The translations under genes were made by a program, and so were the position numbers. This document shows, piece after piece, positions 447-32,925 of a DNA stretch of 33,660 nt (positions within the stretch are counted from its first letter, which is position 1; every line of letters starts with the position of its first letter). This DNA is from a virus (taxonomy: Duplodnaviria > Heunggongvirae > Uroviricota > Caudoviricetes), in the IMG/VR virus record IMGVR_UViG_2913167280_000001, one strand, 5' to 3'. A model generated the notes under the pieces. That model did no database searches, was not told the DNA's origin, and saw only the letters and a program-made list of their open reading frames with translations.

Positions 447-3020
447 TTACTGGACGGCGACGATCCGGTCTTCATTAACTTCCAGGCGAATAACTTTACC
501 TGGAACCAATTCACCAGACAGTATTTGCTGTGCCAGCGGGTTTTCGATCTGCTGCTGGATAGCACGTTTCAGAGGACGTGCACCATAGACCGGATCGTAA
601 CCGTTCTCGCTCAGCAGTTTCAGCGCCTCGTCAGAAATGTGGATTTCATAACCACGTTCTTCCAGACGTTTGTACAGACGTTTCAACTGAATCTGCGCAA
701 TCGACGCAATGTGCTGTTCACCCAGCGGATGGAAGACCACCACCTCATCAATACGGTTAATAAACTCCGGACGGAAGTTATGGCTTACCACACCGAGCAC
801 CAGCTCTTTCATGTGCGCATAATCCAGTTCACCGAAGCGTTCCTGAATCAAATCGGAACCGAGGTTAGAGGTCATAATGACAACCGTATTACGGAAGTCG
901 ACCGTTCTCCCCTGCCCGTCAGTCAGACGCCCATCATCCAGTACCTGCAACAGAATGTTGAAGACATCCGGATGTGCTTTTTCCACTTCATCCAGCAGGA
1001 TGACGGAATACGGACGACGACGCACCGCTTCGGTCAGGTAGCCACCTTCTTCATAACCGACATATCCCGGAGGCGCACCAACCAGACGAGACACCGAGTG
1101 TTTCTCCATAAACTCGGACATATCGATACGGACCATCGCCTCGTCGCTATCAAACATAAAGTTCGCCAGCGCCTTACAAAGTTCAGTTTTACCCACACCA
1201 GTTGGGCCGAGGAACAGGAATGAACCAATCGGGCGATTTGGATCCGCCAGCCCCGCACGGCTACGACGAATAGCGTTAGATACCGCATCAACCGCTTCGT
1301 TCTGACCAATAACGCGCTGGTGCAGTTCTTGCTCCATACGCAGCAGTTTTTCGCGCTCGCTTTCCATCATGCGAGAAACCGGAATCCCCGTCCAACGCGC
1401 CAGCACTTCAGCAATTTCGGCGTCGGTCACTTTATTACGCAACAGACGCATAGTTTTGCCTTCGAGCTGCGTTGCGGCTTCCAGTTGCTTTTCCAGTTCC
1501 GGGATTTTGCCGTATTGCAGTTCAGACATCCGCGCCAGGTCACCCACACGGCGAGCCTGTTCAATGGCGATTTTCGCCTGCTCCAGTTCCGCTTTAATGG
1601 TCTGTGTACCAGAGAGCGACGCTTTCTCTGCTTTCCACTCTTCTTCTAACTCGGAGTACTGACGTTCTTTGTCGCTCAGTTCTTCGTTGAGCATATCCAG
1701 GCGTTTTTTACTGGCTTCATCAGACTCTTTCATTAACGCCTGTTGTTCCAGTTTGAGCTGGATGATACGACGATCGAGTCGGTCGAGTTCTTCCGGTTTT
1801 GAGTCAATCTGCATACGAATGCTGGATGCTGCTTCATCGATCAGGTCGATGGCTTTATCCGGCAGCTGACGGTCAGCAATGTAGCGATGAGACAATGTCG
1901 CCGCTGCAACAATTGCCGGGTCAGTAATTTGCACATGGTGGTGCAGCTCGTAACGTTCTTTCAGGCCACGCAGAATAGCAATGGTGTCCTCAACAGAAGG
2001 CTCGGCAACAAACACTTTCTGGAAGCGACGTTCCAACGCAGCATCTTTTTCGATGTACTGGCGATATTCGTCCAGCGTCGTAGCACCCACACAGTGCAGT
2101 TCACCACGCGCCAGTGCCGGTTTCAGCATATTCCCGGCGTCCATTGCGCCATCGGCTTTACCTGCGCCGACCATGGTATGTAATTCGTCGATAAACAGGA
2201 TGACGTTGCCTTCCTGTTTGGAGAGATCGTTAAGCACGCCTTTTAAACGTTCTTCAAACTCACCGCGATATTTCGCCCCAGCCACCAGCGCGCCCATATC
2301 CAGCGCCAGTACGCGGCGGCCTTTCAGCCCTTCCGGCACTTCACCATTAATAATACGCTGCGCCAGACCTTCAACGATGGCAGTTTTACCAACACCAGGC
2401 TCACCAATCAGCACCGGGTTATTTTTAGTACGACGTTGCAGTACCTGAATGGTACGGCGAATTTCTTCATCACGACCAATCACCGGATCGAGTTTGCCTT
2501 GTTCGGCTCGTTCGGTAAGGTCGATGGTGTATTTTTTCAAAGCCTGACGTTGGTCTTCAGCTCCTTGATCATTCACGCTTTCACCTCCGCGCATTTGTTC
2601 AATCGCTTGAGTAATGTTGGCGGTAGTCGCCCCTGCTGCTTTCAGGATATCGGCCAGCGTGCCGCGAGACTCAAGTGCCGCCAGAACGAACAGTTCTGAC
2701 GAGATAAAGTTATCACCACGTTTTTGCGCCAGCTTGTCGCAAAGATTAAGAACGCGCACCAGATCCTGTGATGGCTGGACATCGCCACCTGTACCTTCAA
2801 CCTGTGGTAAACGGTTTAATGCCTGAGTGATATCTGTGCGCAACTGGCCAGCATTGATGCCAGCAGATGTTAATAAAGGACTAACCGAACCCCCTTCCTG
2901 ATTCAGCAGGGCGCTCATTAAATGAAGTGGTTCGATGAATTGGTTGTCGTGCCCGAGTGCAAGTGATTGGGCATCGGCAAGAGCAAGCTGGAATTTATTA
3001 GTAAGACGATCCAGACGCAT
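447..3020 (-). CDS. clpB: ClpB disaggregase (AAA+ chaperone), 857 aa
   Basis: Translation begins [18 protein letters not shown] at the ATG at 3018-3020 with a GGAGG Shine-Dalgarno; two Walker A ([16 protein letters not shown]) nucleotide-binding domains. The ORF-track start at 3032 is a non-ATG extension. Confidence 0.97.
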
Positions 3021-3058
3021 AACTCCTCCCATAACGGATCAAAGTTGCTACTGGAGAT

Positions 3059-3087
3059 TAAATGAGGTCATCCCTCAATTATTCAAG
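3059..3087 (-). promoter_or_regulatory. sigma-32 heat-shock promoter for clpB
   Basis: Minus strand reads CTTGAA, then a 14-bp spacer, then CCTCATTTA, a close match to the sigma-32 consensus (CTTGAA / CCCCATNTA), about 40 bp upstream of the clpB ATG. Confidence 0.65.
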
Positions 3088-3149
3088 GTTATTGACCAGA
3101 TTAATGTGAAAAGAAAATCACGCGTACCGGATCGTCTTGATTCTTTAGG

Positions 3150-3881
3150 TTATATCAGCCAAATGAAACTTGCCATACGACCGGTGATCTTGTCGCGACG
3201 ATAAGAGAAGAAAGTCTCATTTTCCGTATATGTACAACGGTCGCCGCCGAAAATTTGCTCAACACCAACGCTCGCCAGACGCTGTCGGGCAAGCTGATAA
3301 ATATCCGCCAGATACTTATCACCATGCTGAATGAAAGCTGTACTCGCGTTGGCGTCTACTTCCATAAACGCCTCGCGAACCTCCGGCCCCACTTCAAACG
3401 CGCGTGGACCGATTGCCGGCCCCAACCAGGTAAGAATGTTTTCGGGCTTATCGGCAAAGCAGGAAACCGTCTCTTCCAGCACGCCTGCGCACAGTCCACG
3501 CCAGCCAGCATGGGCAGCCGCGACTTCCGTTCCTGCCCGATTGCAAAACAGCACAGGCAGGCAATCGGCTGTCATTACGGCACAAACCGTGCCGGGTGTG
3601 TTGCTATACGAGGCATCCGCCCGTTTTGAGGTATAAGGTTCGCCAGTAAGCTTAAGCACATCTTTACCGTGTACCTGCTCAAGCCAGACCGGTTTTGAAG
3701 GCAAATTACCCGCAGCAAAAAGCCGCTTGCGATTTTCCTCGACGTGCTCCGGGTTATCACCACAATGAGCACCGAGGTTGAGCGAGTCGTAGGGCGGCAA
3801 GCTCACGCCGCCGACACGGGTAGAGCTACAGGCCGCAACACCTTTTGGCAGCGGCCACTGCGGGACAATCAGCTTACTCAT
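3150..3881 (-). CDS. pgeF: YfiH/PgeF family protein, 243 aa
   Basis: Full-length ORF in the conserved clpB-yfiH-rluD context; 4-nt overlap with the rluD stop. Confidence 0.85.
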   Translation of the reverse strand: MSKLIVPQWPLPKGVAACSSTRVGGVSLPPYDSLNLGAHCGDNPEHVEENRKRLFAAGNLPSKPVWLEQVHGKDVLKLTGEPYTSKRADASYSNTPGTVCAVMTADCLPVLFCNRAGTEVAAAHAGWRGLCAGVLEETVSCFADKPENILTWLGPAIGPRAFEVGPEVREAFMEVDANASTAFIQHGDKYLADIYQLARQRLASVGVEQIFGGDRCTYTENETFFSYRRDKITGRMASFIWLI

Positions 3882-4858
3882 AACCAGTCCACTTCATCCT
3901 TATGCTCTTCGAAATCGGCGCGCATCACCTCAATCAGCTCCACCATATCTTGTGGAATAGGCGCATGCCATTCCATTTCAATGCCGGAGATCGGGTGATA
4001 AAGACGCAGCATGGTTGCATGAAGCGCCTGACGATCAAACTTACGCAGCGTGGAGATAAACGCTTCCGAAGCACCTTTTGGCGGACGCGGACGGCCACCA
4101 TAAACCGGATCGCCCACCAGCGGATGGGTTATATGGGCCATATGCACGCGGATCTGGTGCGTACGTCCAGTTTCCAGACGCAGCCGCAGACGCGTGTGCA
4201 CACGGAAGTGTTCCATAATGCGATAGTGAGTGACCGCCGGTTTGCCCATCGGATGCACCGCCATATGAGTTCGTTTGGTCGGATGGCGACTGATTGGCTC
4301 GTCCACCGTGCCACCAGCAGTCATATGACCAATTGCTACCGCTTCATACTCACGAGTAATTTCACGTCGTTGCAGAGATTCCACCAGGCGCGTCTGGGCT
4401 GGAACGGTTTTTGCCACAACCATGAGGCCAGTGGTGTCTTTATCCAGACGATGGACAATACCCGCACGCGGTACATCGGCAATGGGCGGATAGTAATGAA
4501 GCAACGCATTCAATACCGTGCCATCCGGGTTACCCGCGCCAGGATGTACCACCAGGTCGCGCGGTTTATTAATGACGATAATGTCTTCATCTTCATAGAC
4601 GATATCCAGCGGGATATCCTGCGGTTCAAAACGCGCTTCTTCTTCAATCTCGGCGTTGATGGCCACCAGCTCGCCACCTAATACTTTTTCTTTCGGCTTA
4701 TCACAAACTTTGCCGTTAACCAGCACGCGCTGGTTGAGGATCCATTCTTTTATTCGCGAACGTGAATAATCCGGGAACATTTCGGCTAAAGCCTGATCTA
4801 AGCGTTGACCGAGTTGGTTTTCGGACACTGTTGCAGTGAGTTCTACTCGTTGTGCCAT
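3878..4858 (-). CDS. rluD: 23S rRNA pseudouridine synthase RluD, 326 aa
   Basis: RluA-family catalytic motif HRLDKDTTG preceded by an S4-like N-terminal region; divergent from bamD as in E. coli. Confidence 0.93.
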   Translation of the reverse strand: MAQRVELTATVSENQLGQRLDQALAEMFPDYSRSRIKEWILNQRVLVNGKVCDKPKEKVLGGELVAINAEIEEEARFEPQDIPLDIVYEDEDIIVINKPRDLVVHPGAGNPDGTVLNALLHYYPPIADVPRAGIVHRLDKDTTGLMVVAKTVPAQTRLVESLQRREITREYEAVAIGHMTAGGTVDEPISRHPTKRTHMAVHPMGKPAVTHYRIMEHFRVHTRLRLRLETGRTHQIRVHMAHITHPLVGDPVYGGRPRPPKGASEAFISTLRKFDRQALHATMLRLYHPISGIEMEWHAPIPQDMVELIEVMRADFEEHKDEVDWL

Positions 4859-4992
4859 ATATACTGCTTCTTCGTTTATCGTTGGGGTTTTACGGCTTTG
4901 CCGTTTAATATAGTGTGCTATTGTAGCTGGTCTTAACCGGGAGCAGGAACAGAGAATCTCCCGTATTACATTTTGAGGAAAGTCAAAACGTC

Positions 4993-5730
4993 ATGACGCG
5001 CATGAAATATCTGGTGGCAGCCGCCACACTAAGCCTGTTTTTGGCGGGTTGCTCGGGGTCAAAGGAAGAAGTACCTGATAATCCGCCAAATGAAATTTAC
5101 GCGACTGCACAACAAAAGCTGCAGGACGGTAACTGGAGACAGGCAATAACGCAACTGGAAGCGTTAGATAATCGCTATCCGTTTGGTCCGTATTCGCAGC
5201 AGGTGCAGCTGGATCTCATCTACGCCTACTATAAAAACGCCGATCTGCCGTTAGCACAGGCTGCCATCGATCGTTTTATTCGCCTCAACCCGACCCATCC
5301 GAATATCGATTATGTCATGTACATGCGTGGCCTGACCAATATGGCGCTGGATGACAGTGCGCTGCAAGGGTTCTTTGGCGTTGACCGTAGCGATCGCGAT
5401 CCTCAACATGCTCGAGCTGCGTTTAGTGACTTTTCCAAACTGGTGCGCGGCTATCCAAACAGCCAGTACACCACTGATGCAACCAAACGTCTGGTGTTCC
5501 TGAAAGATCGTCTGGCGAAATATGAATACTCCGTTGCAGAGTACTACACCGAACGTGGCGCATGGGTTGCCGTCGTCAACCGCGTCGAAGGCATGCTGCG
5601 CGACTACCCGGATACCCAGGCTACGCGTGATGCGCTGCCGCTGATGGAAAATGCTTACCGCCAGATGCAGATGAACGCTCAGGCTGAAAAAGTCGCGAAA
5701 ATTATTGCCGCTAACAGCAGCAACACTTAA
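4993..5730 (+). CDS. bamD: outer membrane protein assembly factor BamD (lipoprotein), 245 aa
   Basis: Signal peptide ending in a lipobox (LFLAGCSG); full-length match to remembered E. coli BamD. Confidence 0.95.
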
Positions 5731-5748
5731 CAGGTGTGATATACGCAA

Positions 5749-5777
5749 AACGGCAGCCCTGGAGCTGTCGTTTTTTT
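5749..5777 (+). terminator. intrinsic terminator after bamD
   Basis: Stem AACGGCAGC / GCTGTCGTT followed by a run of 7 T. Confidence 0.7.
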
Positions 5778-5946
5778 ATTCGATTTGAACGCTAACTAAA
5801 GCGATTCAGTCGCGACTGATCCTATCAAATATGGCTCGCTTTGAGACATTCCTCAAGTAAAAAAACACCTCTTCCTGCGATTTCTCACAAAAAAACTTCG
5901 TTGACAAAAAGTGACAAAATTATGAGATTTTCATCACACATTTTGA

Positions 5947-6342
<396 letters not shown>

Positions 6343-6494: not shown

Positions 6495-7301
6495 TTATGT
6501 AGCCGAAATGGTTGTGGTGATGGTCCCCCGAAGCCGCTGCGCAGCTACCTCAAAATAATGATCACTGGTTTCTATACCAATAAATTTTCGCCCTGCTTTC
6601 AGTGCAGCCACACCCGTTGTCCCTGACCCCATAAAAGGATCAAGGACTGTTCCGCCACTATTCGCAGTTCTGACCAGTTCTGCCATAAGTTCTTCTGGTT
6701 TTCCGGTCGGGTGCATTTTCTTTGATGGGATAACCGGGAACGTCATGCAGCCGTCGAACGGTCCCGAAGGCGATTTATCTAAATGGCCTTTACTGCCCCA
6801 GACGATGTATTCGCACTGATGCCGGAAATACCCCGTATGGGGTGTTCGTGACCCCCTTCCTTTGTTCCACGCAATGATGCCGCGCCATGTGAAACCACTG
6901 GCCTGAAATGCATCAGTTAAAGCTGGCAGTTGTCGCCAGTCAGTAAATACCAGGGCATAACCGCCCGGCCTGACTGCGCGGTGTGCCTGTGCCATCCATA
7001 ATTGTGTCCAGTAAGCCCACGAACGGGCATCCATGTTTTCACCCGCAAACCCATCAAAGCGATGAAGGCTCTCGCCGTTCAGATATTTTGCGTGGCTGCC
7101 CTGGTTGGTGCGTCCGGCCTTGTGTGTCGCGCCCGAACTGTAAGGCGGGTCAGTGATTAAGGCATCAATACTTTCTGGCTCAATCAGCGGCAATATTTCC
7201 AGCGCATTCCCACGACAGAGCGTGGCATTGTCAGTCTGATAAACCTTAGTGTGTTCCGGTGTATGTGCTGGTTGGTGCTGGATTGTGATCCCCACGGTCA
7301 T
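6495..7301 (-). CDS. beta-class DNA methyltransferase (N6-adenine or N4-cytosine), 268 aa
   Basis: DPPY catalytic motif at residues 51-54 lies N-terminal to the AdoMet-binding motif DPFMGSGTT (beta-class order). ATG at 7299-7301 with a GAGGAG Shine-Dalgarno. Confidence 0.85.
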   Translation of the reverse strand: MTVGITIQHQPAHTPEHTKVYQTDNATLCRGNALEILPLIEPESIDALITDPPYSSGATHKAGRTNQGSHAKYLNGESLHRFDGFAGENMDARSWAYWTQLWMAQAHRAVRPGGYALVFTDWRQLPALTDAFQASGFTWRGIIAWNKGRGSRTPHTGYFRHQCEYIVWGSKGHLDKSPSGPFDGCMTFPVIPSKKMHPTGKPEELMAELVRTANSGGTVLDPFMGSGTTGVAALKAGRKFIGIETSDHYFEVAAQRLRGTITTTISAT

Positions 7302-7443
7302 AACTCCTCATGTGTGTGGGGTGCTCGATGGCTCTCGTTATCTGGTTAAGTGTTTTGCAGCGCGGACATTTTATTTCAATGTAGTGAAATGAGGCGCGGG
7401 CAAGTAGTTTGTTGCAATTTTTGCATCGTACATTTTGCGTCAT
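7246..7443 (-). CDS. com: Com-like zinc-finger protein (Mu com family), about 65 aa
   Basis: Sequence MTQNVRCKNCNKLL...IEIKCPRCK carries the Cys4 pattern remembered from Mu Com (RCKNCNKLL...IEIRCPRCK). It overlaps the first 56 nt of the downstream methyltransferase gene. ATG at 7441-7443; the track start at 7452 is GTG. Confidence 0.75.
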   Translation of the reverse strand: MTQNVRCKNCNKLLARASFHYIEIKCPRCKTLNQITRAIEHPTHMRSYDRGDHNPAPTSTYTGTH

Positions 7444-7488
7444 TTGCGGCACCTCTTGTGTGGTTACTGCTGCCGATATGATAACAAA

Positions 7489-8043: not shown

Positions 8044-8536
8044 GCATTCAGGTTTGCGAGATAGGGTGCCTTATCGACCTTAACCCTGGCAACCGATTGA
8101 CGGGGGATTGCTCCCCCGTCGCGGTTTCCTTACTGCTTACACTGTAAGAACGCCGCAAACTCCGCTCCCCAGAAGCTCATCCGTATCTCACACAGCGAAC
8201 CGTGTAGCATCCAGATGATGAGGATTGCCGTCACGCAGAACGTGATGGCTATAAGCGATTTTTGCGACATAGCACTTGCTCCTTTTTTTGCAAAGGCGCT
8301 AAGCTCTTGCCCGCTTATTGATTACGTTGTGAAACGCCCAGAGTTGAACATAAGGTTTAGTTGGGCCTTTTTACATCTGGCCTTCGTGTTTGCTGTCCAG
8401 CCATCAGTCGAAAGGCGTCCGCGTGAATTCTAGCCTGCTTTTTTTTCTTGCTTCAATACGTTGACTAATTTCAACACTCTGTTGTGCATATCCTGAACGC
8501 AGACATTATTCAGTCACGCATTTGATACATGCTTCC

Positions 8537-9102: not shown

Positions 9103-10800
9103 TCAGGCGATAAGGTCACCGTATTTTTCGCGCAGGCTCGTAGCCTGTTTGGCGTCTGCGGCAAGTTCGCTGCTGTTTGTTGGTGCGCCGGTGTTGCTGT
9201 GGGTGTGGTTTGCAGTGTGTGTGGCCAGCAACTGAACCAGATCCAGAATATCAATCAACAACGTCAGCAGATTAAGTCCGGATTTTTCCCGTGAGCCACC
9301 GCGACCAATAAATACTGTCGGGGCTGTAAACTCCAGACCGCCGTCCGCCCGGCATGTTCTGCGGCCTCCCACGTTTTCAGTAAGGTCGCGCTCAATCGTG
9401 GATGTCGCCCCTTTGAGTTTAGTCAGCAAATCCTGCGCTACCATCTGGATATGCTCACCGGCTGCGATCGCATAATGACCAGTAGTAATGTGTTCTGTCT
9501 GGCCTGTCATCAGCTTGCTGGTTCCCAGAACGCTGGTTATGTCGTTTGCCTGTACTGTTGTTGTTCTGGTTGTTGTTGTGCGTTCTTCCTGATCGCTGTT
9601 AATGGTTCGCCTGGCTGAATGCTCCCTGATTTGCTGATCGGTTTCTCTGTGCCAGCTTCCGTCAGTCGTGACACGCTGAAACACTTCTGCGCGCTGTTGC
9701 TGCAGCTGTTCGCCGGGCTTTACATCAGGCAGGTTATGGCCAGCGGGTAAGATTTGCCTGATGACAGGTTTATCCGGTCGTCCTTCAATGTTGGATATTT
9801 CCACGATGGTGCCAGCCGGCGGGTAGGCAAAACATCCCGCCTCACTGCCAGCCATGGGGACGGGGAGCGGTACTGCCGGGTAAACGGGCGTATCGCTTTT
9901 ATCGTTGCCGTTCTCATCAAGCAACTGCACATCGACGGCGTAGCGTGGGCGGAAACTGTCGGCCACATCGCCCAGGGTGGCGGGCTCCGTTGGTGCAATG
10001 ACGCGCGCCAGCCGGGTATGTAGCGTACCGCTGGCCAGTTCCGGGAACTGTGTTTCCATTTGTCTGCGTAATGGTGATTTGGAAACAGGGCTGCCCGTGG
10101 CGGTAAGGCGCTCCCATGTCAGGGTCATTTTCTCGTTGTTGAGGGCTACACGGGTAATGCGCCCGGCTGGAAGGTTCACGCCCGGTCGCACAGTTTCCAT
10201 AAACATGATGTCGATGCTGTTTCCGCCGCTTTGCCCGAGTGTGTACTGTTGCGGAATATCCGGCATTGTAATGCTGGCAAATCGTGAATCAGCTGCACTT
10301 CCCACAAATACAGAACCGTCCGGCATAGGGTGCCAGACGTAATCGTTGATACTGAATGCTCGCCCCAGTTGGCTGAGCAGCTGTGCTCCGCTGCCGCTGT
10401 GGGTGATGTAGGGAGTTGGTATACTGGCATAATCCGCATCCGGAGTGATAAAAACGATACCGCTTTGTCGCCCCAGATTATCGAGTACCCCCCGCAACGT
10501 CGGGTGTTGCATGGAGCAAGGGAAATCAAAATCCAGCACAGCAGCCGCTTCACGAATAAAAAGGCGACGTGAGCCATTTTCAGCAGGTTGATCGCGCTCA
10601 ATGTAGCCGGAGAAATAGCGCCATGCTTCACCGTCACGGCCGAGATCAATTTGTACCATTGCGCCGGCAAGGCTGTGTTCGGGTGACAGATTGTTAACAG
10701 AAATGAAGCCACGACCGGCAGCATTCAGGGTAAGAACAAGGCTTATATCGGCAATTTCCACCCATTCGCCATTAATCATGCAGCGTTGTATCAATTTCAT
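9103..10800 (-). CDS. tail spike protein with a gpV/gp5-type OB-fold domain and an N-terminal extension (possible hub-spike fusion), 565 aa
   Basis: Residues about 306-350 (PVPMAGSEAGCFAYPPAGTIVEISNIEGRPDKPVIRQIL) resemble the conserved spike OB-fold motif; C-terminal HTANHTHS resembles the histidine tip motif of P2 gpV. Last gene of the tail operon, ATGA-coupled to the upstream gene. Confidence 0.6.
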   Translation of the reverse strand: MKLIQRCMINGEWVEIADISLVLTLNAAGRGFISVNNLSPEHSLAGAMVQIDLGRDGEAWRYFSGYIERDQPAENGSRRLFIREAAAVLDFDFPCSMQHPTLRGVLDNLGRQSGIVFITPDADYASIPTPYITHSGSGAQLLSQLGRAFSINDYVWHPMPDGSVFVGSAADSRFASITMPDIPQQYTLGQSGGNSIDIMFMETVRPGVNLPAGRITRVALNNEKMTLTWERLTATGSPVSKSPLRRQMETQFPELASGTLHTRLARVIAPTEPATLGDVADSFRPRYAVDVQLLDENGNDKSDTPVYPAVPLPVPMAGSEAGCFAYPPAGTIVEISNIEGRPDKPVIRQILPAGHNLPDVKPGEQLQQQRAEVFQRVTTDGSWHRETDQQIREHSARRTINSDQEERTTTTRTTTVQANDITSVLGTSKLMTGQTEHITTGHYAIAAGEHIQMVAQDLLTKLKGATSTIERDLTENVGGRRTCRADGGLEFTAPTVFIGRGGSREKSGLNLLTLLIDILDLVQLLATHTANHTHSNTGAPTNSSELAADAKQATSLREKYGDLIA

Positions 10801-11372
10801 GTTTTCCCTTCCTCTTTCACGCTCCCGATGCCAACAGCATCCAGACCAGAGCCAACGGCATCATTGATTTTTTTCCAGAACGAACTTTGCGTATTCATGC
10901 CTTTGTCTGGTGCCTGTTCGCTGCCATTCTGGGTCTGCTGTCTGGCGATGGTTTTCTGCGAACCGCTGCGTGCGGATGCTTTCTCTGGCACGCTTAATTT
11001 TTCCCTGAGAGTAAAGGTGATCTGCCAGTGCATTTTTCCCTGTTGTTCCGTGGCATCAATGCCACCAGAAAATACCCCCTGTCGCATATTGATTGCCTTC
11101 GCGGTAGCGTTAGCAATGCGATAGGTTTTTTTAGCACCGTTGCTTTCTGTTGCCTCCGCAAGCTGAAAAATACGGGTCAGAATAGCTTCATCGTTAAAAT
11201 CAATAACCCCCGACACGCGCAGCTCTTTAGCCTTGTTTCCCTGCTGGGCGCTCGTGGTGCTGGTTGACTGTCCGGACATATCTTTGTCCGGTAGTTGCAT
11301 GGTGGCGCTGACGGTGATGTTGCGCAGCAGAATGGCTTCTCCGTCAAGCGCAAGGACAATCATCTGGGTCAT
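10797..11372 (-). CDS. putative tail/baseplate protein, 191 aa (family uncertain)
   Basis: Translationally coupled between an unknown gene and the spike gene; no secure motif. Confidence 0.3.
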   Translation of the reverse strand: MTQMIVLALDGEAILLRNITVSATMQLPDKDMSGQSTSTTSAQQGNKAKELRVSGVIDFNDEAILTRIFQLAEATESNGAKKTYRIANATAKAINMRQGVFSGGIDATEQQGKMHWQITFTLREKLSVPEKASARSGSQKTIARQQTQNGSEQAPDKGMNTQSSFWKKINDAVGSGLDAVGIGSVKEEGKT

Positions 11373-12057
11373 GTAGTGCTTCCCTTAGTGATGAGAGATT
11401 ATCGCCGACGAACAGCATCACAGCTGTAAAAACCCACTCGGGGTGTGGGATGTTTTTTTGTATCAGCACTGCAGCCTGGCTAAGGGCTCCTTTGTAGCAA
11501 AAGCGCCACACCGGGCAAAATTTTTGCCGGAGTGCGGTCTGCTGATTAGCTATTTCCTGTAAGGCTTTATCTCTCGCATTCATGAACTGATGCAGTGATG
11601 ATGACAATGTTTCCGGTGATGTAGCGGCAGGAGTGGCTGCCTGTGCAATGGTTGCCGCCAGCGACATGCTGCGAGTGGTCTGTGTCGACAGCATTATCGG
11701 TTCTGGAAGTGATGTTGCCGGTCTGGCGGGGATTTGCATTCTGCTGATGGCCAGTGAAAGCTGGCTGGAGATCATGCGGGACATTCGTCCCACCTCCGGC
11801 AACGGAAATGCGCCTGAAAATTGCCTGGCGAGTGATAAAAACTCGCCAGCAGAAGGAGCGCAAAATAACAGCGCCACAATGTCCTTTTCCGTGTTTTCTT
11901 TCAGATAGGGTAAAAGTGCAGATACAGCATTTTCGGGGCTGAGATAACGCCCCGATGGTTTGATGTTTCCGGTATTTTCTGACCATGGATGAAGGCAAAC
12001 CACAGAGCATTTAATGTTCATGGCTGACGGGCGCAGAATTGCGTTTTCCCATTTCAT
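11344..12057 (-). CDS. hypothetical protein, 237 aa
   Basis: ATGA-coupled to the upstream fibre-chaperone gene; Ala/Ser/Thr-rich low-complexity central region; no recognisable motif. Confidence 0.4.
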   Translation of the reverse strand: MKWENAILRPSAMNIKCSVVCLHPWSENTGNIKPSGRYLSPENAVSALLPYLKENTEKDIVALLFCAPSAGEFLSLARQFSGAFPLPEVGRMSRMISSQLSLAISRMQIPARPATSLPEPIMLSTQTTRSMSLAATIAQAATPAATSPETLSSSLHQFMNARDKALQEIANQQTALRQKFCPVWRFCYKGALSQAAVLIQKNIPHPEWVFTAVMLFVGDNLSSLREALHDPDDCPCA

Positions 12058-12626
12058 TCTGACTCTCCAGCCTGAAAAGCGCGGATGTCGGCAAGATTAT
12101 TCAGACTATCCAGCACATCCTTCATCTGTCGCTGACGTCGATAAATTTCATCATTGCGGTTAACCTGCGCCTGCGCCATAGCTGTAGCCAGCCCCTCAAG
12201 CTCTGGCATCGACATCTTCACTTGCTGATTATCGGCGTCACCCCATGCCATAACGTCCCGCGCTGTGTCGGATTTTGATGCCATCACCACCGGATAAAGG
12301 CGGGTCAATGAGTCGGGGCCGGCGTTCCAGGTGCGACCGTTCCATTCGAACGTGAACGGCTGTGCTTCCTGTTCTGTGCGCCATGCCTCGATTTCCTGGC
12401 GTTTGGCGACTTTTGCTGCTTCCAGCATTTCAGGTGATACGGTGAACGGGGCAATCTTGCCCCATTTGCCGCTTTGCAGTTCCTGCCAGACGCGTTGGCC
12501 TGTCATTGCACTGTCTTCTGGTGTGGCTGTGTAGGGGACGGCTTCATCCATCCCTTCAAACAAAACTTCGCAGTCAATCGCACCGGATTCCAGATAGCGT
12601 GGATTCAGAATTTGTTGTATTTCCAT
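12054..12626 (-). CDS. putative tail fibre assembly/chaperone protein (second cassette), 190 aa
   Basis: Sits immediately downstream of tail fibre gene 2, by analogy with Mu U / P2 G; sequence differs from the first chaperone. Confidence 0.45.
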   Translation of the reverse strand: MEIQQILNPRYLESGAIDCEVLFEGMDEAVPYTATPEDSAMTGQRVWQELQSGKWGKIAPFTVSPEMLEAAKVAKRQEIEAWRTEQEAQPFTFEWNGRTWNAGPDSLTRLYPVVMASKSDTARDVMAWGDADNQQVKMSMPELEGLATAMAQAQVNRNDEIYRRQRQMKDVLDSLNNLADIRAFQAGESE

Positions 12627-12629
12627 TTT

Positions 12630-14681
12630 TTAGTTCACCCGCATAAATAAACCGACAAAGCATTCTGACGTGCCAAGTGTTGTTAAATGGCTGCCTGATA
12701 GTGCAATAAATGACCCTGCCTGTGGATATGAATTAGGAGACACAGTAATAAACTGTGGCGTGCTGGCATATGAGCCTGATGTGCTGCATTTCGCACTTAT
12801 TGTGACCGCCCCCAGTCTGGAGCCAGGTACAACTTGCCCCCTTTTCATTTTCCTGCTGCTGTCTGTGTCAGACTCACCAAAATAGGCCGCAAAAATCAGA
12901 CCTCCGACGCCCGGACTTCCCCATGCATTCCCTGTAACCGAGCGTAATAGATCTATTTGCGTCGCCGGGGACCACCACCCTTCAAGTTGAGGGCAGGCAG
13001 GATCTGCAATAAGACGGTTGTAATACAGCTCTCCACGAGCCCCCCGGTATGTAATGACTTTGTCATACACAGAGTGTGAGTTCGCATTGGCAGAAGAATA
13101 TGGTGACTCGATTTCTACTACACCATCAAATACTAATCCCGGAATTACCCTAATCGCTTCTGGATCTGTAATGACCTGTGTAACAAGATAGCGCCCTGGA
13201 GGCGTTTCCATGACCCACATAAGAAAATCCATGGGGCCATCCTTGCCTGTAAGCAGGTGGGGTGTTGAATAAAATGCTCCATAACCAAATGCGCCGGGTA
13301 ATGCCCCCCGACCTTCCGAGCGATCATAAATATCGCTTTGTAATGTCACTGTTCCGGAGTCTTCCAGCTCAAGCACCTTCCGCATATCTTCTGCTGTAGC
13401 TTGCGCCAGTAGTGAACGAGCCTTTTGCGTCACCTGGGCAAGTGATGCTTTCCCGTCCGTATTAAAGTACAGAAGGTTATCTGCCTGCGCTTTTAATTTG
13501 CTGATTGCCGTTAAAACATCGCTAAGCGGCTGTTTACCTGCCAGTGCGTTAGTGACCGTTGTTGCAAAGTTCGGGTCATTACCCAGCGCAGCTGCCAGCT
13601 CGTTCAGCGTGTCCAGAGCTTCCGGTGATGAGTCAACCAGCGCGGCAAGCAGTTTGCGGACAAACTCCGCATTGGCTATTTCAGTGCCTGCTGCGTCATC
13701 TGGCGGGGTTGGTGTTGTCGGTGCTCCGGTCAGTGCCGGGCTTTTCAGGGGAGCGCGTGCTTCAATCTGTGCGATGAGTGAAGCCTCATCAACCTTCAGA
13801 TTTTCCCAGCCAGCCAGATACCCCTGACCGCCGACGTAGCGATTGTAATAAATCTGACCATTAACACCGTAGTAAATTACTGCCTTATAGGCCCTGTCAT
13901 CGGTTGAGCTTTTAGGTTGTGGCCAGATAATTTCAATAACGCCGTTTGTCTGAATGCCTGGTACCACCACATTTGTGTCCGCAAATACGGTATAACGACC
14001 GGGTTTTGCCGTTTTTACCCAGCGGAGAAAATCGGCCTCTGTTTTAAACTCGGTCCTGTCGCCGCTGGAAAATACTTTCCCGAATCCAAACATGCCGGGA
14101 ATCGCCAGACGGCCTTCGGTGCGGTCGTAAAGGTCTGTTTGTACATCCATCGTTGCAGCAGTTTTCAACCCCAGATTGTCGCGGGATTCCTGTTGTGCTT
14201 CTTTCCCTTCTGCTGCAATTTCTGACAAACGGTTAGGGATTTTCAGCATTGATTTCAGCTCTGGATAAAGATCTATCTGCCAGCTCTGTGGAGGAACAGT
14301 AATTTGCGCAGCCTGAGCAATGCCGCTGTATATAATCGTGAAATTACGAATAAGTGACTCGCCTGTCACTTTTTGTCGAACAGGCGTTTTTATTACGCCG
14401 CATAGTGTTCCGCTGGCCTGATGGATGAGGCAAATCCAGTCATAGCTGAATGCACAGTCATCAGGAACAACCGCGCTACACACAATATTGTTCGGGCTTA
14501 ACTGGCCATAGGTCAGTTCATTCACGGTATATGTGATTTTTTCTTCCGGAACGGTATTATCTTCGTGCGTTGGTTCCCGCTCCATCAGGGCAAAAATAAT
14601 AGTGTCAGGGCGTGCAGGTAAATTACTGGCTGTGCATTCAGCAACCCACTTTTCAAATGCTTTCGTCAACAATGCGCTCAT
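12630..14681 (-). CDS. tail fibre protein 2 (P2 H / Mu S family), 683 aa
   Basis: N-terminal domain homologous to fibre 1 (PARPDT, NLIRTF/NLIRNF, WQID); central segment SPALTGAPTTP...ALVDSSPEALDTLNELAAALGNDPNFATT matches the conserved P2 H region; an internal duplicated domain (YDRxEGR...PGxFGxG, twice). Confidence 0.85.
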   Translation of the reverse strand: MSALLTKAFEKWVAECTASNLPARPDTIIFALMEREPTHEDNTVPEEKITYTVNELTYGQLSPNNIVCSAVVPDDCAFSYDWICLIHQASGTLCGVIKTPVRQKVTGESLIRNFTIIYSGIAQAAQITVPPQSWQIDLYPELKSMLKIPNRLSEIAAEGKEAQQESRDNLGLKTAATMDVQTDLYDRTEGRLAIPGMFGFGKVFSSGDRTEFKTEADFLRWVKTAKPGRYTVFADTNVVVPGIQTNGVIEIIWPQPKSSTDDRAYKAVIYYGVNGQIYYNRYVGGQGYLAGWENLKVDEASLIAQIEARAPLKSPALTGAPTTPTPPDDAAGTEIANAEFVRKLLAALVDSSPEALDTLNELAAALGNDPNFATTVTNALAGKQPLSDVLTAISKLKAQADNLLYFNTDGKASLAQVTQKARSLLAQATAEDMRKVLELEDSGTVTLQSDIYDRSEGRGALPGAFGYGAFYSTPHLLTGKDGPMDFLMWVMETPPGRYLVTQVITDPEAIRVIPGLVFDGVVEIESPYSSANANSHSVYDKVITYRGARGELYYNRLIADPACPQLEGWWSPATQIDLLRSVTGNAWGSPGVGGLIFAAYFGESDTDSSRKMKRGQVVPGSRLGAVTISAKCSTSGSYASTPQFITVSPNSYPQAGSFIALSGSHLTTLGTSECFVGLFMRVN

Positions 14682-14687
14682 TACTTC

Positions 14688-15239
14688 TTAATTCTCGCTA
14701 ATGTTCTGCGGTAATTCTGGCCATACAATCGCGGCATACGATGCTTTATCTGTAACCTGGCTGAATGTCATCTCCCGTAACGTTTTTGTATAAATACGGC
14801 AGGCTTTCAATTTCCCCCTGTCTTCGTCGCTGATTAATCCCAGCAGCAGGTCTTTTTCCCATTCGCTGGTCATGATGCTGGCCTGTTTTAACAGTGCATC
14901 ACGCTCATCTTCCGCTTTAAGTTTGTAGTCGAAGACAAATTTATCGTCGCGGTAAAACCAGTAACCAGGCACGGTAATACGGCGGTTAGCGGTAATATCA
15001 GGAACTTCAATAACACTGGCGTTACGGGGTTCAATGCCTGTCACATCCTTACCGACCCACACCACGCGCCCGTCTCCGGTGTAAACCATTTTTATGGTGT
15101 CACTGGCAAAGTTCTTCTGTTCTTCATACCAGTTTTTGCCGTCTTCCGAAAAAAGCCAGGTAACACCATATTGTTTTGTCAGCTGATATTGTTCCGCGGT
15201 TTTCGGGTTACCCGCAGTAATATTTTTTAAATGCAACAT
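14688..15239 (-). CDS. tail fibre assembly protein (first cassette), 183 aa
   Basis: Immediately downstream of fibre 1; size and C-terminal WPELP-type motif typical of the Tfa/U/G chaperone family. Confidence 0.7.
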   Translation of the reverse strand: MLHLKNITAGNPKTAEQYQLTKQYGVTWLFSEDGKNWYEEQKNFASDTIKMVYTGDGRVVWVGKDVTGIEPRNASVIEVPDITANRRITVPGYWFYRDDKFVFDYKLKAEDERDALLKQASIMTSEWEKDLLLGLISDEDRGKLKACRIYTKTLREMTFSQVTDKASYAAIVWPELPQNISEN

Positions 15240-15241
15240 TG

Positions 15242-16942
15242 TTAAACACTCGCCACGTTATACCAGGTACCGTTAATCAGTTTCTGAAGCGGTCGGTAAT
15301 ACACGCCGCCGATGTTATCTGCCGAATTACTTCCGGTTTCCTGCACATTAATACCGGATAACCCGTGGCCTGAAGGTGAGCGAAATGTCCAGGATATCTG
15401 GTTACCTCCCGGGTTGTAATACATTTCGGAACCATAACGCACATCCTGCACGCCGCCTGTTTTGGTCTGGTAACGGGCATCAAAGTTTCCGTAGTCTGAC
15501 GGTGTTACCCGCCCTGAAACATTCACTGCCCGGTTACTTTGTAACGCGCCATTCTGAAAACGGAATACGTGCTGACCATTGGCATAAACATCCAGCAGGC
15601 CGTCACCATTCTGTTTCAGGCCGGTATCGTTATCCCCGAAAGCAATTGAGTTTCCGCCCAGCGCATTCTGAACGCCGATACCCAGCGCACCATTCACCTG
15701 AGAACCGCCACCAACAGACACTTTATGCGACATGGATATTTCACCCGTCCGCAAATTAATAGTGAACGGACGCAGGGGGCCAATATCGCCGTTTTCGCCC
15801 TGATTTTCCCGGGTGGGAATAAGATGCAGGCACTCTTCAGAACGACGAAAAATCAGGCCAAAAGCTTCGTTGAAAATCCTCAGTGCATTAACACCACGGA
15901 TTTTCAGCTCCCCGGTCATGGTGTCGCCGTCGCGCTCAACAGCGTCTTTTGCTTTATCCATTGCGGCTTTTACTGCCTTTGATGTGGCGGCGCGGTCTTC
16001 TGCGTCGCTGTCGGTGGAGTTGCTGTACTGCGCAAAGCCTTTCTCCTTCAGTGTTGCGTCCGGATGATGGCGGGATTTTTCGTGCTCTGCCAGTGCATTG
16101 CTTTGTTCTTCGTCGGGTGTCTCCGGGCGCAGGTCCTGTGGGCCGTCTCCTGTCATTTTTGCAAGTGGCGCGACAAAGTGTCGGAAGCCGTTACCGTCTG
16201 TATAAGACGCATGTTCCTGGCGGGCGCAGAACGTAAAAACGGTATTCCATTCGCCGGTAACAAATCCCTGCCAGCTTGCATCAATCCAGATGGTATCCCC
16301 GACCGCAGCCGGCAGGCTGTAAGGTTCGCGCAGACTGACGCGCAGACCTCCCACATAACCCACGCCGGCGGCAACAGTAGCGGTACCGTCCTGATAGCTG
16401 ACCTGAAAACCATCCCCCAGAAAAGCGGCTTCACCGTAGTGATCAAACGCCAGCAGCCGGCGGGCCTCATCCATTCCTGCAAGGCGTGCAGTGAAATCAA
16501 TCTGCCAGACATCAGCGCTGACATCGATATGCATTGCTGCGGCTGCGCCGTCAAACTCCATGGAAAATGTGCGGATCAGGTTGTTTCCCTGCACGCCGTT
16601 CGCTGTTTTAATTTTTTGCTGACGAGGTGTGTGTGCAATCATGCAGAGCACGCCGCTTTCTTCGTTCAGCAGACCGATCCAGTTGTATTCGAAGTCGCCG
16701 ACTGTCGTGTCCAGAATGATGGAAAACGCGGTCGCGTTCGGCGACAGGAGGCCGTACTGGGTGACCGGCGCACGATACTGAATCATGGATTCATCAGGGA
16801 GTATCTCATCGCGGGGGATCTCTGCGGATTCATCCTGTCCCGGAATATATGCAAAAACAAATGTATCCGGGCGCGCAGGTTTTCCACTGATGATTTGATT
16901 TGCGCACCAGTGTTCGTACTGTTCAGTAATAATCGTGCTCAT
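15242..16942 (-). CDS. tail fibre protein 1 (P2 H / Mu S family), 566 aa
   Basis: Contains SRHHPDATLKEKGF...ATSKAVKAA and the C-terminus GDNDTGLKQNGDGLLDVYANGQHVFRFQNG...INGTWYNVASV, matching remembered P2 H conserved blocks. Confidence 0.88.
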   Translation of the reverse strand: MSTIITEQYEHWCANQIISGKPARPDTFVFAYIPGQDESAEIPRDEILPDESMIQYRAPVTQYGLLSPNATAFSIILDTTVGDFEYNWIGLLNEESGVLCMIAHTPRQQKIKTANGVQGNNLIRTFSMEFDGAAAAMHIDVSADVWQIDFTARLAGMDEARRLLAFDHYGEAAFLGDGFQVSYQDGTATVAAGVGYVGGLRVSLREPYSLPAAVGDTIWIDASWQGFVTGEWNTVFTFCARQEHASYTDGNGFRHFVAPLAKMTGDGPQDLRPETPDEEQSNALAEHEKSRHHPDATLKEKGFAQYSNSTDSDAEDRAATSKAVKAAMDKAKDAVERDGDTMTGELKIRGVNALRIFNEAFGLIFRRSEECLHLIPTRENQGENGDIGPLRPFTINLRTGEISMSHKVSVGGGSQVNGALGIGVQNALGGNSIAFGDNDTGLKQNGDGLLDVYANGQHVFRFQNGALQSNRAVNVSGRVTPSDYGNFDARYQTKTGGVQDVRYGSEMYYNPGGNQISWTFRSPSGHGLSGINVQETGSNSADNIGGVYYRPLQKLINGTWYNVASV

Positions 16943-17574
16943 GCTTCATCTGCCTGTAATGTGTAATGTTCCACGGACAGGCCGTAATGTCCTGCCTGTA
17001 GCGAAGCGGTTAACCAGATGGTGTCCTTTCTCACCGTTGCTTCTGCTGTGTGATACCTGTAATGGCCATCGAATGTGCCGGCTGTCATCCGGGCAGTGGT
17101 TGTATTGATTACCTGAAAGAAATAGCGCCTGCAGGTACGACCATACTGGCGCACGAGCTGCATCATCAGCGCGTTGTTTTCACTTAACTGGGTGTCATTA
17201 ATGCGCAGTAAAATAACGTCCCAGTCATGCTGCAGTTGCCGTTCCAGTGTTTTAACGTCTCCCACGCCAAGACGCTTAAAGATGCGTTCGAAGCCGGCGC
17301 GTTCGCCAGAGTCCTGAGCGTTAATAAACGCGTGTTTCACTCTTAAGCGAAATAATGAAACCGGCTCACCTTTAAATCGGGTGATATTGCGCTGATAAGC
17401 CAGCAGGTTAAGTAAAGGCTCTGCGCAGGTGTCGACATCAATCTGCTGTAGTGGCCACGTCAGCCAGCTGTATACCTTTTCCCAGTAGCGATGCGATGAA
17501 TGTGCCAGCGTTAACGGCTCACCTTTATTCATCCAGGTGGGGAGCGGGAATTCAGGGATCTCCGGAAGTTTCAC
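16939..17574 (-). CDS. putative baseplate/tail protein (P2 gpI-like by synteny), 211 aa
   Basis: Sits between the J-like baseplate gene and the tail fibre, overlapping both; GTG start per the track. Confidence 0.45.
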   Translation of the reverse strand: MKLPEIPEFPLPTWMNKGEPLTLAHSSHRYWEKVYSWLTWPLQQIDVDTCAEPLLNLLAYQRNITRFKGEPVSLFRLRVKHAFINAQDSGERAGFERIFKRLGVGDVKTLERQLQHDWDVILLRINDTQLSENNALMMQLVRQYGRTCRRYFFQVINTTTARMTAGTFDGHYRYHTAEATVRKDTIWLTASLQAGHYGLSVEHYTLQADEA

Positions 17575-18755
17575 TCGCTCACCTCCACAGTAAGGGATTC
17601 CAGACGAGGAACAGCCAGATCACTGAGAATATCTGGAAGAGAAAATGTAACCGACTCCACCTGTGGAAATACCTGGTGGATCTCTTCGCCCAGTCTGGAC
17701 ATGCTGAAACGGCTATACGGCCATGTTTTCTGAACGTCATAATCGCTGTTTTCTCGAAATGCACAGCGAACCAGATTTTCCACATTGCGCAATAACGTCT
17801 GAATTTCCTCATCGCTGAGGTTCAGCGTTGCATATAACCAGAGTGTCACGGTCAGGGTGTGGCGTGTTTCAGGCATGGAAAAACAGCGCAGATCATCACC
17901 GTGTCCGTGATGACCTTCATCGTTAATGAATGCGTTTACTGCATCAACGAACGGTTCGGATGCGATGCCGGTATCCAGCAGAATGTAAGCATTTGCTGTG
18001 CCGGGGCCGCGTGGTGCGTCATGCAGAAAATAGATGCGGTCGGCACTGACGCCGGCAACGCCGGCAATTAATCCCCGATAAACTGCATCGGTGTGATAAG
18101 CGCCGGCAAGATTAAACTGATTGCGAACACGATCACGCAGCTCGTCATCGCTTTCTTCGTTGGCACCCGGTGTGGTCAGCCAGTTTTCATCGTTCTCAAC
18201 ACCGGCAATACCATCAATCGCCACTGGAAGGATGCGGTAATATCCCGGCGCAAGGTTAAAGCCGGCTCCGGCCTGTTCCGCAGAAACATCGATGTTCATG
18301 CTGAGTGTTCCTGCCGGAATAACGGTATCCCTGACAACGGTCAGCGTATAAATCACGCCGTTAATGCGTTCTGTCTGAATCTGCGTACCGGCCGGCACGG
18401 TAACTGCGCGATCAATGTCGTTCTTGGTGAAACGAATCACGCCGGCTGCGTGCGTGGCGGCCTTGCGTTGCAGGTTTACCGCCCAGGCAAAAACATCAAC
18501 GAATACACCGCTGGCATCGGCCAGAAACAGGTTTTTCATCACCACATTAACCAGCGCATCTTTCAGCCACATCACGGGTTTTGTGGTGATGGCTGTAATC
18601 AGTCGCCAGAACGGCGACATGCGGGATGTGTTGGTGATAAGCCCTTCGTCTTTGACAATGGCTTCAAATTCAGCGCGTGCCTGTTCTTCGGTTACCGGCA
18701 TGCCGTTATCAGCCAGAATGCGCTCGTAATCTGCGGTGGGTTTGCCGTTAATCAT
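17571..18755 (-). CDS. baseplate protein (P2 gpJ / T4 gp6-like), about 394 aa
   Basis: Size and position after the W-like gene and before the I-like gene and fibres; probable ATG at 18753-18755 (the track start at 18758 is TTG). Confidence 0.65.
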   Translation of the reverse strand: MINGKPTADYERILADNGMPVTEEQARAEFEAIVKDEGLITNTSRMSPFWRLITAITTKPVMWLKDALVNVVMKNLFLADASGVFVDVFAWAVNLQRKAATHAAGVIRFTKNDIDRAVTVPAGTQIQTERINGVIYTLTVVRDTVIPAGTLSMNIDVSAEQAGAGFNLAPGYYRILPVAIDGIAGVENDENWLTTPGANEESDDELRDRVRNQFNLAGAYHTDAVYRGLIAGVAGVSADRIYFLHDAPRGPGTANAYILLDTGIASEPFVDAVNAFINDEGHHGHGDDLRCFSMPETRHTLTVTLWLYATLNLSDEEIQTLLRNVENLVRCAFRENSDYDVQKTWPYSRFSMSRLGEEIHQVFPQVESVTFSLPDILSDLAVPRLESLTVEVSE

Positions 18756-19098
18756 CAAGAGATACCGTAAAAGTCAGGGGTTCAAAAAAATCTTCGGTGT
18801 GGGCGCTAATCAGCAGGCGACCAGAAAGCGGGGTTTCTTCTGTCACACTGACCGTGCCGGGTGTGATGCGCTCATCATCTTCAATCAGCAGTGTCATCTG
18901 CATCATGATGTCGGCACGAAGTGTCGGGCTTTTTTCAGCCAGCAGGCGCGTTGCCAGTCCGCTCTCAATGATGGCGTGCTGGCAGTCCTGGGCAATACTT
19001 TCCCTGTTGTTGCATAACACCGGCTCACTGGCGCTGTTCAGCGTGAGATTGCGGCCGGTGATGAGCAAATCAATGTAAAGCGGTTTATCAGTATGCAT
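18748..19098 (-). CDS. putative baseplate wedge protein (gpW/gp25-like), about 116 aa
   Basis: Internal ATG at 19096-19098 of the 162-aa track ORF gives a 116-aa product immediately after the tape measure stop; size and position match P2 gpW. The longer ORF overlaps the tape measure gene by 149 nt. Confidence 0.45.
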   Translation of the reverse strand: MHTDKPLYIDLLITGRNLTLNSASEPVLCNNRESIAQDCQHAIIESGLATRLLAEKSPTLRADIMMQMTLLIEDDERITPGTVSVTEETPLSGRLLISAHTEDFFEPLTFTVSLDD

Positions 19099-32606: not shown

Positions 32607-32921
32607 TCACTTCGGAAAAAACGCCTGAATATTCTTCTTCACCTGCTGCATATGGGGGGCGCTGTCTGCTGCTGGTTGCGCCGGTTTTTCAGGCTGTACT
32701 GGTAGCGGTGGCATCCTTATTTCGTCTTCTGACCATTCTGCCAGCGAATACGCCAACGCGGGGATGCGTTTTATAAGAGCCAGTCCGGCCAGAAAAGCCG
32801 CGCGTTGTGCGCGGCTGCGTTCGGAGGCTGGCAGGCTGTCGAGGTAACTGCACGCCTCCCGTTCGCTCTTGACGACGGCGGGCTTCAGATAGAAACTTAT
32901 CCGTCTGGTTGGTGTCGTCAT
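32607..32921 (-). CDS. parR: ParR-like partition adaptor protein, about 104 aa
   Basis: N-terminal YLDSLPASERSRAQRAAFLAGLAL resembles plasmid R1 ParR (from memory); AAGGAG Shine-Dalgarno 7 nt before the ATG at 32921, embedded in the parM 3' end. Confidence 0.65.
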   Translation of the reverse strand: MTTPTRRISFYLKPAVVKSEREACSYLDSLPASERSRAQRAAFLAGLALIKRIPALAYSLAEWSEDEIRMPPLPVQPEKPAQPAADSAPHMQQVKKNIQAFFPK

Positions 32922-32925
32922 TGAT

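Follow-up and report, generated by a model that had tools for sequence, protein, structure and literature searches.

Tandem tail fibre and chaperone cassettes with paralogous anchors in an HP1-type prophage of Escherichia

Phages with several receptor-binding proteins are well known, among them T4 with its long and short fibres and the multi-spike phages of the CBA120 and phi92 types. In lambda the Stf protein is an accessory fibre added to the primary adhesin, whereas Mu and P1 express one fibre and chaperone pair at a time, S/U or S'/U', by Gin/Cin inversion of opposite cassettes that share a constant N-terminal exon. For the P2/HP1-type baseplate only a single fibre type has to our knowledge been described, and we know of no baseplate architecture with two full fibre sets in P2/HP1-type phages or tailocins. 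Here we analyse the IMG/VR virus record IMGVR_UViG_2913167280_000001 (Caudoviricetes), a stretch of 33,660 nucleotides (nt) that we call the window, in which the tail operon of a prophage encodes two complete tail fibre and chaperone cassettes one after the other. The best-supported reading, which we regard as fairly probable from the sequence comparisons below, is that the late operon supplies both fibres, each with its own chaperone, and that they are mounted together through paralogous anchors.

The closest described systems are HP1 (Haemophilus), K139 (Vibrio), SI7 (Salmonella) and ESSI-2 (Cronobacter), which have the same tail and baseplate module in the same order and the same anchor type as the first fibre of the window. 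The window phage departs from this single-fibre family in that a further fibre gene, whose product has a paralogous anchor, is inserted before ORF33 together with a DUF4376 chaperone gene. With the Mu G and P1 C segments it shares two fibre and chaperone pairs in one locus, the tip of fibre 1 being homologous to Mu S and chaperone 1 to Mu U. Here, however, both cassettes point the same way, an anchor of its own begins each fibre, and the window contains neither an invertase nor an inverted repeat. The distal part of fibre 2 resembles lambda Stf/Tfa (Ur-lambda) and lambdoid Stf-like prophage fibres, and the idea of an added accessory fibre is common to both layouts. It departs from lambda Stf in its PF12571 rather than PF08400 anchor, in the contractile-tailed HP1-type particle and in a DUF4376 protein in place of lambda Tfa (PF02413). 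Shigella phage Sf14 (PMC11821841), which has two long tail fibres, resembles T4 and the multi-spike phages in displaying several receptor-binding proteins on one baseplate, and the genes suggest the same here. The baseplates and attachment modes of those phages are unrelated to the present case, which has paralogous anchors of one family on a small P2/HP1-type baseplate. Our literature search found no paper on a two-fibre HP1/P2-type (Peduoviridae) particle, on a paralogous second anchor or on an asymmetry between a constant and a variable fibre.

Two fibre and chaperone pairs on one strand

An earlier note made from the letters of the window had described two complete cassettes in tandem and in the same orientation, and we confirmed the four open reading frames (ORFs) on the minus strand. 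Their features, with lengths in amino acids (aa), are as follows; the coordinates of the knob repeats come from hidden Markov models (HMMs).

15242-16942, minus strand: fibre 1, 566 aa, the constant fibre, with PF12571 and PF03406
16463-16942, minus strand: fibre 1 anchor (aa 1-160), canonical HP1-family type, keeping 23 of 28 family-conserved positions
15242-15972, minus strand: fibre 1 distal half (aa 324-566), Mu S-like receptor-binding region, matching PDB 5yvq_A (Mu tail fibre S) at E=1.5e-18
14688-15239, minus strand: chaperone 1, Mu gpU-type tail fibre assembly protein, 183 aa, PF02413 at E=1.9e-21 and PDB 5yvq_B at E=3e-39
12630-14681, minus strand: fibre 2, 683 aa, the variable fibre of the second slot, PF12571 at aa 3-137
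14253-14681, minus strand: fibre 2 anchor (aa 1-143), 38% identical to that of fibre 1 and a diverged paralogue of the HP1-family type
13782-14156, minus strand: knob repeat 1 of fibre 2 (aa 176-300), internal repeat
12957-13355, minus strand: knob repeat 2 of fibre 2 (aa 443-575), internal repeat
12630-12956, minus strand: C-terminal tip of fibre 2 (aa 576-683), allele-specific, of low identity between alleles
12054-12626, minus strand: chaperone 2, DUF4376 protein, 190 aa, PF14301 at E=1.7e-16, its stop overlapping the next gene (ORF33) by 4 nt

Fibre 1 lies directly after the gpJ and gpI wedge genes, the position of P2 gpH and R-pyocin Prf15, and matches PF12571 at aa 3-157 (E=2.5e-29, 102.6 bits against a Pfam gathering cut-off of 23) and PF03406 at aa 297-335. 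Chaperone 1 follows immediately and scores 77 bits for PF02413 (Caudo_TAP; cut-off 22.1). The Mu S/U complex has been solved (5yvq), and both the distal half of fibre 1 and chaperone 1 are homologous to it; the receptor of fibre 1 is probably lipopolysaccharide core, by homology to Mu S only.

Fibre 2 is encoded one cassette further downstream of gpJ and gpI and also begins with PF12571 (E=1e-11, 45.5 bits against the same cut-off), the type of anchor by which the fibres of P2 and of pyocins are tethered. The homologous N-terminal domain that the earlier note had assigned to both fibres is borne out by an alignment at 38% identity over 160 aa (E=3e-26), and past these 160 residues the two proteins share nothing, in keeping with its claim of different C-terminal regions. 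The P2 H-like blocks it had placed in both fibres were recovered in fibre 1 (PF03406) but not in fibre 2, which has only the PF12571 anchor and a generic fibre coiled-coil motif. From aa ~170 to 683, fibre 2 is 52-59% identical to the distal three-quarters of lambdoid Stf-like proteins of ~1035 aa that carry a PF08400 anchor. The PF08400 N-terminal domain that marks the lambdoid Stf proteins is replaced by PF12571 in fibre 2, so that only the distal 75% is Stf-like, and the protein reads as a chimera of an HP1-type anchor and a lambdoid Stf-like shaft. Within this shaft self-alignment recovered the internal duplication noted earlier, aa ~164-300 against ~431-570 (36% identity, E=2e-26), which corresponds to a knob-like domain of ~125 aa. 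An AlphaFold2 (AF2) model of aa 151-683 had a mean predicted local distance difference test score (pLDDT) of 60 and a predicted template modelling score (pTM) of 0.29, and a Foldseek search of the PDB with it gave no match at E<=0.001.

Each fibre is followed by its own chaperone, and the two chaperones are as dissimilar as had been claimed, being unrelated in sequence (PF02413 against PF14301/DUF4376). Chaperone 2 matches PF14301 at aa 70-174 (61 bits against a cut-off of 25), has no PF02413 match and gave no solved homologue in our searches. Proteins with DUF4376 are experimentally required fibre chaperones in Alteromonas phage V22 (gp27; PMC7289586) and in Campylobacter CJIE1 prophages (PMC7882524).

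The genes are tightly packed, with gaps of 2 nt between fibre 1 and chaperone 1, 6 nt between chaperone 1 and fibre 2 and 3 nt between fibre 2 and chaperone 2, and with 4-nt overlaps of gpI with fibre 1 and of chaperone 2 with ORF33. The second cassette therefore sits between translationally coupled genes, upstream of the baseplate genes ORF33 to ORF35. No sigma-70-like promoter was found on the minus strand within the cassettes, the whole region having fewer promoter-like sites than shuffled sequence, and there was no convincing minus-strand terminator between them. The P2-type late promoter motif TGT-N12-ACA occurred 8 times against 8.9 expected by chance and not once in the divergent intergenic region of the head genes, and it is thus uninformative here.

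The absence of an invertase and of inverted repeats, also claimed earlier, holds within the window. Between 8500 and 19500 there were only short inverted repeats of 14-23 nt, at chance level and with no Gin/Hin-type site features, and a loose search for the invertase-site core (AAACCNNGGTTT, one mismatch allowed) returned chance-level matches; the pattern (AAACC..GGTTT type) is a short approximation of the Gin/Hin site cores. The window ORFs scanned for domains included no recombinase and hence no adjacent serine invertase of the Din family, and instead of opposite cassettes flanked by inverted crossover sites, as in the Mu G, P1 C and e14 P segments, there are two cassettes on the same strand. 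The earlier proposal that both fibres are made at once fits intact, co-oriented and tightly packed genes with no inversion switch in the window; that they occur in the same virion and bind different receptors is what we infer from this arrangement.

A constant first fibre and a variable second slot

Relatives were collected by an alignment search with ORF34, taking one genome per species, and the resulting 80 loci, 70 of which contain both gpI and ORF34, were classified with home-built HMMs for the anchor, Tfa, DUF4376, J, I and ORF33 to ORF35. One anchor-bearing fibre was present in 69 of the 70 species-representative HP1-family loci and two only in Escherichia albertii, a distribution that marks the doubling of the fibre as an innovation of the Escherichia lineage. 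Among the phage collection no cultured phage had a fibre 2-type anchor above 32% identity and none had two matching places. Window-type gpI is found in 46 of 5,426 complete E. coli genomes, and the count for the fibre 1 anchor at >=95% identity is the same; the fibre 2 anchor occurs in 49, at 70-98% nucleotide identity. When the accession lists were compared all 46 gpI-positive genomes also carried the fibre 2 anchor, and at each of the 25 loci with a readable upstream flank it came second, after fibre 1 and its Caudo_TAP chaperone.

Within this lineage the two fibres are unequal partners, an asymmetry that the earlier note had not seen: fibre 1 is near-invariant while fibre 2 occupies a hypervariable slot. 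J, I, fibre 1, chaperone 1, ORF34 and ORF35 have 95-100% protein identity between lineage members (fibre 1 97-98%), as against 59% for fibre 2, 30% for its last ~230 aa (aa 450 to the end) and 73% for the DUF4376 protein. Synonymous divergence (dS) is highest at the second cassette, rising from 0.03-0.09 in J, I and ORF34 through about 0.1 in fibre 1 and 0.14-0.25 in chaperone 1 to 0.43-0.51 in the fibre 2 anchor. The ratio of nonsynonymous to synonymous divergence (dN/dS) of the fibre 2 anchor is 0.08-0.15 (pairs at dS 0.4-2.9), and the anchor is under strong purifying selection. The earlier note had considered that one cassette might prove to be an untranslated pseudogene; with both cassettes intact and the second anchor so constrained we think this very improbable.

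The second anchor is a constrained but divergent member of its family. It keeps 13 of the 28 positions that are conserved at >=80% in the family, compared with 23 of 28 for the fibre 1 anchor, and in a neighbour-joining tree it sits on a long branch with no single-fibre phage as its sister. In a Foldseek search an AF2 model of this anchor (pLDDT 77, pTM 0.74) matched the N-terminal part of a tail protein of 953 aa from the solved tail of Haloferax HFTV1 (probability 1.0, template modelling score 0.56), a predicted likeness that is compatible with an attachment role. A profile search with the anchor against PDB sequences gave chance hits only.

All seven sampled full-length fibre 2 alleles are intact ORFs, of 430-683 aa and with at least five different tips. 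Second-slot fibres that are followed by DUF4376 have one, two or three copies of the knob repeat, including an 810-aa form, and other forms of 350, 518 and 842 aa have no separate chaperone. The 842-aa fibre (loci L118 and L119, 7001-9529) has the same anchor with neither knob repeats nor a downstream chaperone, and its length matches phrog_33169, which is labelled 'unknown function'. At L012 (7307-9247, E. albertii), and also at L120 and L121, a 285-aa protein that joins a short, repeat-rich stub to the fibre 2 anchor is followed by a 352-aa ORF that had no match to our local HMMs, with no DUF4376 there; the pair may be an adaptor plus a separate receptor-binding protein. On the side of fibre 1, one E. 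coli genome (L007, 5743-7440) has this gene called only as a 304-aa C-terminal fragment, next to an intact fibre 2.

The RefSeq annotation (PGAP) splits intact fibre 2 genes into two pseudogene fragments, one of them named 'shikimate transporter' (L001 16262-18313; L096 4762-6807; L099 7262-9301). These pseudogene calls are an annotation artefact, direct checks having shown uninterrupted ORFs of 679-683 aa, and our analysis corrects the labels.

Divergence of ORF33 was considered as a possible co-adaptation with the second slot and rejected; by eye the differences are concentrated in the N-terminal ~30 aa beside the slot, which looks like the end of a recombination tract. A longer C-terminus of gpI was likewise ruled out as an adaptation to a second fibre, the single-fibre relatives L028, L029 and L053 having the same.

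Origin of the unit and mounting of the fibres

The same four-gene layout of fibre, Caudo_TAP, Stf-like fibre and DUF4376 is present in phiP27 (L54-L57) and Rac-SA53 (tail1-tail4), where it is annotated but uncharacterised, and in the phiP27-like prophage of E. coli A36; we found no paper on the double layout in phiP27-type phages. The window DNA is collinear with these loci at 72-92% identity over fibre 1 aa 324-566, chaperone 1, fibre 2 aa ~145-468 and the DUF4376 gene. The distal half of fibre 1 reaches 86-92% nucleotide identity to phiP27, Rac-SA53 and the A36 prophage, and the chaperone 2 gene 77-80% to phiP27 L57 and Rac-SA53 tail4. There is no DNA match to phiP27-type loci at either anchor or at the fibre 2 tip (none beyond query nt 3665). 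The phiP27-type phages differ from the window phage in having Mu-like baseplates (gp45-48) instead of an HP1-type one. Their second fibre has a PF08400 anchor of the lambda Stf type, whereas both anchors are PF12571 in the window, and the first fibre of phiP27 has no anchor that Pfam recognises. The two-cassette unit is thus common to two unrelated tail types and, since it is collinear except at the anchors, with PF08400 in the phiP27-type loci, the anchors track the type of baseplate. Of the indirect arguments for a genuine attachment role of both anchors, this match of each fibre's anchor to its baseplate is the strongest.

We propose that the late baseplate operon of an HP1-type prophage gained a second receptor-binding fibre. 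J and I, fibre 1, chaperone 1, fibre 2, chaperone 2 and ORF33 to ORF35 would be transcribed as one message and translated by coupling. Fibre 1 with its Mu S-like tip would trimerise with the help of the Mu U-like Tfa, and fibre 2 with its lambdoid Stf-like shaft, knobs and tip with the help of the DUF4376 protein. Each fibre would then dock on the baseplate by its own PF12571-type N-terminal anchor, so that two kinds of fibre would be on the virion at once. Fibre 1 would provide a conserved specificity and fibre 2 an exchangeable slot, the distal parts of which are replaced by recombination with other prophages so that host range is tuned at the level of the strain.

Several observations count against this proposal. 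Of the 28 family-conserved positions 15 are lost from the fibre 2 anchor, which also has a 6-residue deletion and may therefore not bind the canonical site; as a divergent paralogue it does not allow a shared docking site for both fibres to be assumed. We found no baseplate adaptation specific to the two-fibre lineage, neither an extra component nor a lineage-specific insertion. The integrase and regulatory end of the prophage lie beyond the window, and a distant regulator is conceivable since the window ends short of the whole prophage. Two relatives that are 99.9% identical to the window have +1 insertions in homopolymers of fibre 2, in an A5 run (L093 7559-9613, L095 2890-3568) and in a G6 run (L093), at sites that correspond to nt 290 and nt 1636 of the window fibre 2 gene; these are either real inactivation or decay or homopolymer sequencing error. 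Together with the one truncated fibre 1 these frameshifts suggest that neither fibre is indispensable for persistence of the prophage.

A bolder form of the proposal, which we put forward as no better than a tentative possibility, is that the second anchor is an orthogonal docking module for which the baseplate has a site of its own. Each particle would in that case bear two full fibre sets, a constant Mu S-type and a freely exchangeable Stf-type one, and the two-cassette unit would be a mobile super-module, passed between tails of the Mu and HP1 types with a change of its anchors only.

The alternative that survives best, although we think it unlikely, is that both fibres compete for the same six baseplate sites, giving a random mix on each virion or a mixed burst as a form of bet-hedging. 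Both anchors do belong to one family (PF12571), and the baseplate showed neither an extra component nor a lineage-specific insertion. The second anchor has however diverged at more than half of the family-conserved positions while remaining strongly constrained, which fits a distinct and specialised interface better; its divergence leads us to lean towards a distinct interface rather than the same six sites for the two anchors.

A less probable arrangement would attach fibre 2 to fibre 1, to chaperone 1 or to another part of the tail, as a branched or accessory side fibre like lambda Stf. In Mu the U chaperone stays bound to the fibre, and the Stf-like distal 75% of fibre 2, its atypical anchor and the joint travel of the fibre 1 distal half, chaperone 1 and the Stf-like module in phiP27-type phages would all suit such a branch. 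It is however the anchors and not the distal parts that change with the type of baseplate, PF12571 here and PF08400 in the Mu-like tails. With the fibre 1 distal half and chaperone 1 common to both tail types, an anchor docked on them would be expected to be shared as well.

It seems to us very improbable that the second cassette is carried along silently or in decay, as a depot of spare parts for recombination and not as a component of the virion. The frameshifted copies in two relatives, the PGAP pseudogene labels on several alleles and a guanine plus cytosine content of the cassette region lower than that of the backbone could be read in this way, but the labels are artefactual, the anchor has a dN/dS of about 0.1, and the cassette, which lies between essential genes that are translationally coupled, occurs in every one of the 46 genomes. 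Least credible of all is a switch between the cassettes by means other than inversion, such as slippage at the A5 and G6 runs or a regulator beyond the window: the +1 insertions do fall at exactly these runs in two assemblies, but the runs are short, the other alleles examined are in frame, and shared descent or sequencing error is simpler for near-identical strains.

If both fibres are indeed made and co-mounted as we propose, the phage would be a natural small contractile particle of the P2/HP1 type with two receptor specificities from two paralogous anchors. Display of both would also offer engineers of phages and tailocins a second attachment handle, by which a receptor-binding protein could be added without removing the first. 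The asymmetry of the two fibres would then provide a testable model in which temperate phages retain a conserved adsorption step while strain-level specificity is swapped.

The prophage and its other genes

The window begins in an E. coli-type host chromosome, with clpB, pgeF, rluD, bamD and raiA at 447-6342, and continues as prophage up to its end; it derives from contig RHJM01000005.1 of assembly GCA_004212315.1. The prophage is an HP1/K139/SI7-type (Peduoviridae) temperate myovirus of Escherichia. Its head genes are P2-like, with terminase and portal on the plus strand (28728-31542) and scaffold, capsid and small terminase on the minus strand, and it encodes an Ogr/Delta late activator. The tail module runs in the HP1/K139/SI7 order of DUF2586 protein, tube, tape measure, DUF2590, J, I, fibre, Tfa, ORF33, ORF34 and ORF35; from the tape measure on, this is the HP1-type synteny with ORF34 as PF25759, and it is broken only by the two cassettes between I and ORF33 where the HP1 type has one. 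The genes that flank the cassettes are the following.

17571-18758, minus strand: gpJ-like baseplate wedge protein, PF04865 at E=6e-32, phrog_6 (baseplate wedge)
16939-17574, minus strand: gpI-like baseplate protein, PF09684 (Tail_P2_I), its stop overlapping the start of fibre 1 by 4 nt
11344-12057, minus strand: HP1 ORF33-like protein, 237 aa, by synteny with HP1, K139 and SI7; phrog_1677
10797-11372, minus strand: HP1 ORF34 baseplate complex protein, PF25759 at E=1e-53
9103-10800, minus strand: HP1 ORF35-like baseplate protein, 565 aa, last gene of the operon, phrog_2258 (baseplate protein) at E=6e-232

The ORF35-like protein is 42-47% identical to HP1 orf35 and SI7 gp24. Between this last baseplate gene and the end of the prophage lies a 46-aa ORF (8130-8270, minus strand), at the position of which the gene tables of relatives list a Hok/Gef-family toxin, a likeness by position alone. 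Further on, a Com-type zinc-ribbon ORF (7246-7452, minus strand) overlaps the start of an N6/N4 DNA methyltransferase gene (6495-7301, minus strand), an arrangement like com-mom of Mu with the methyltransferase as the regulated gene instead.

The prophage lineage adjoins raiA/bamD in the window (end at ~6400) and in some genomes and flk in others (compared: L001, L009 and L011), and on these flanks it therefore uses at least two integration sites. At the other end of the window (32607-33660, minus strand) are genes for a ParM/StbA actin-like partition ATPase, which runs off the window end, and for a Plasmid_stab_B protein; in a chromosomally integrated prophage they may point to maintenance in the manner of a plasmid, as an option or as a relic.

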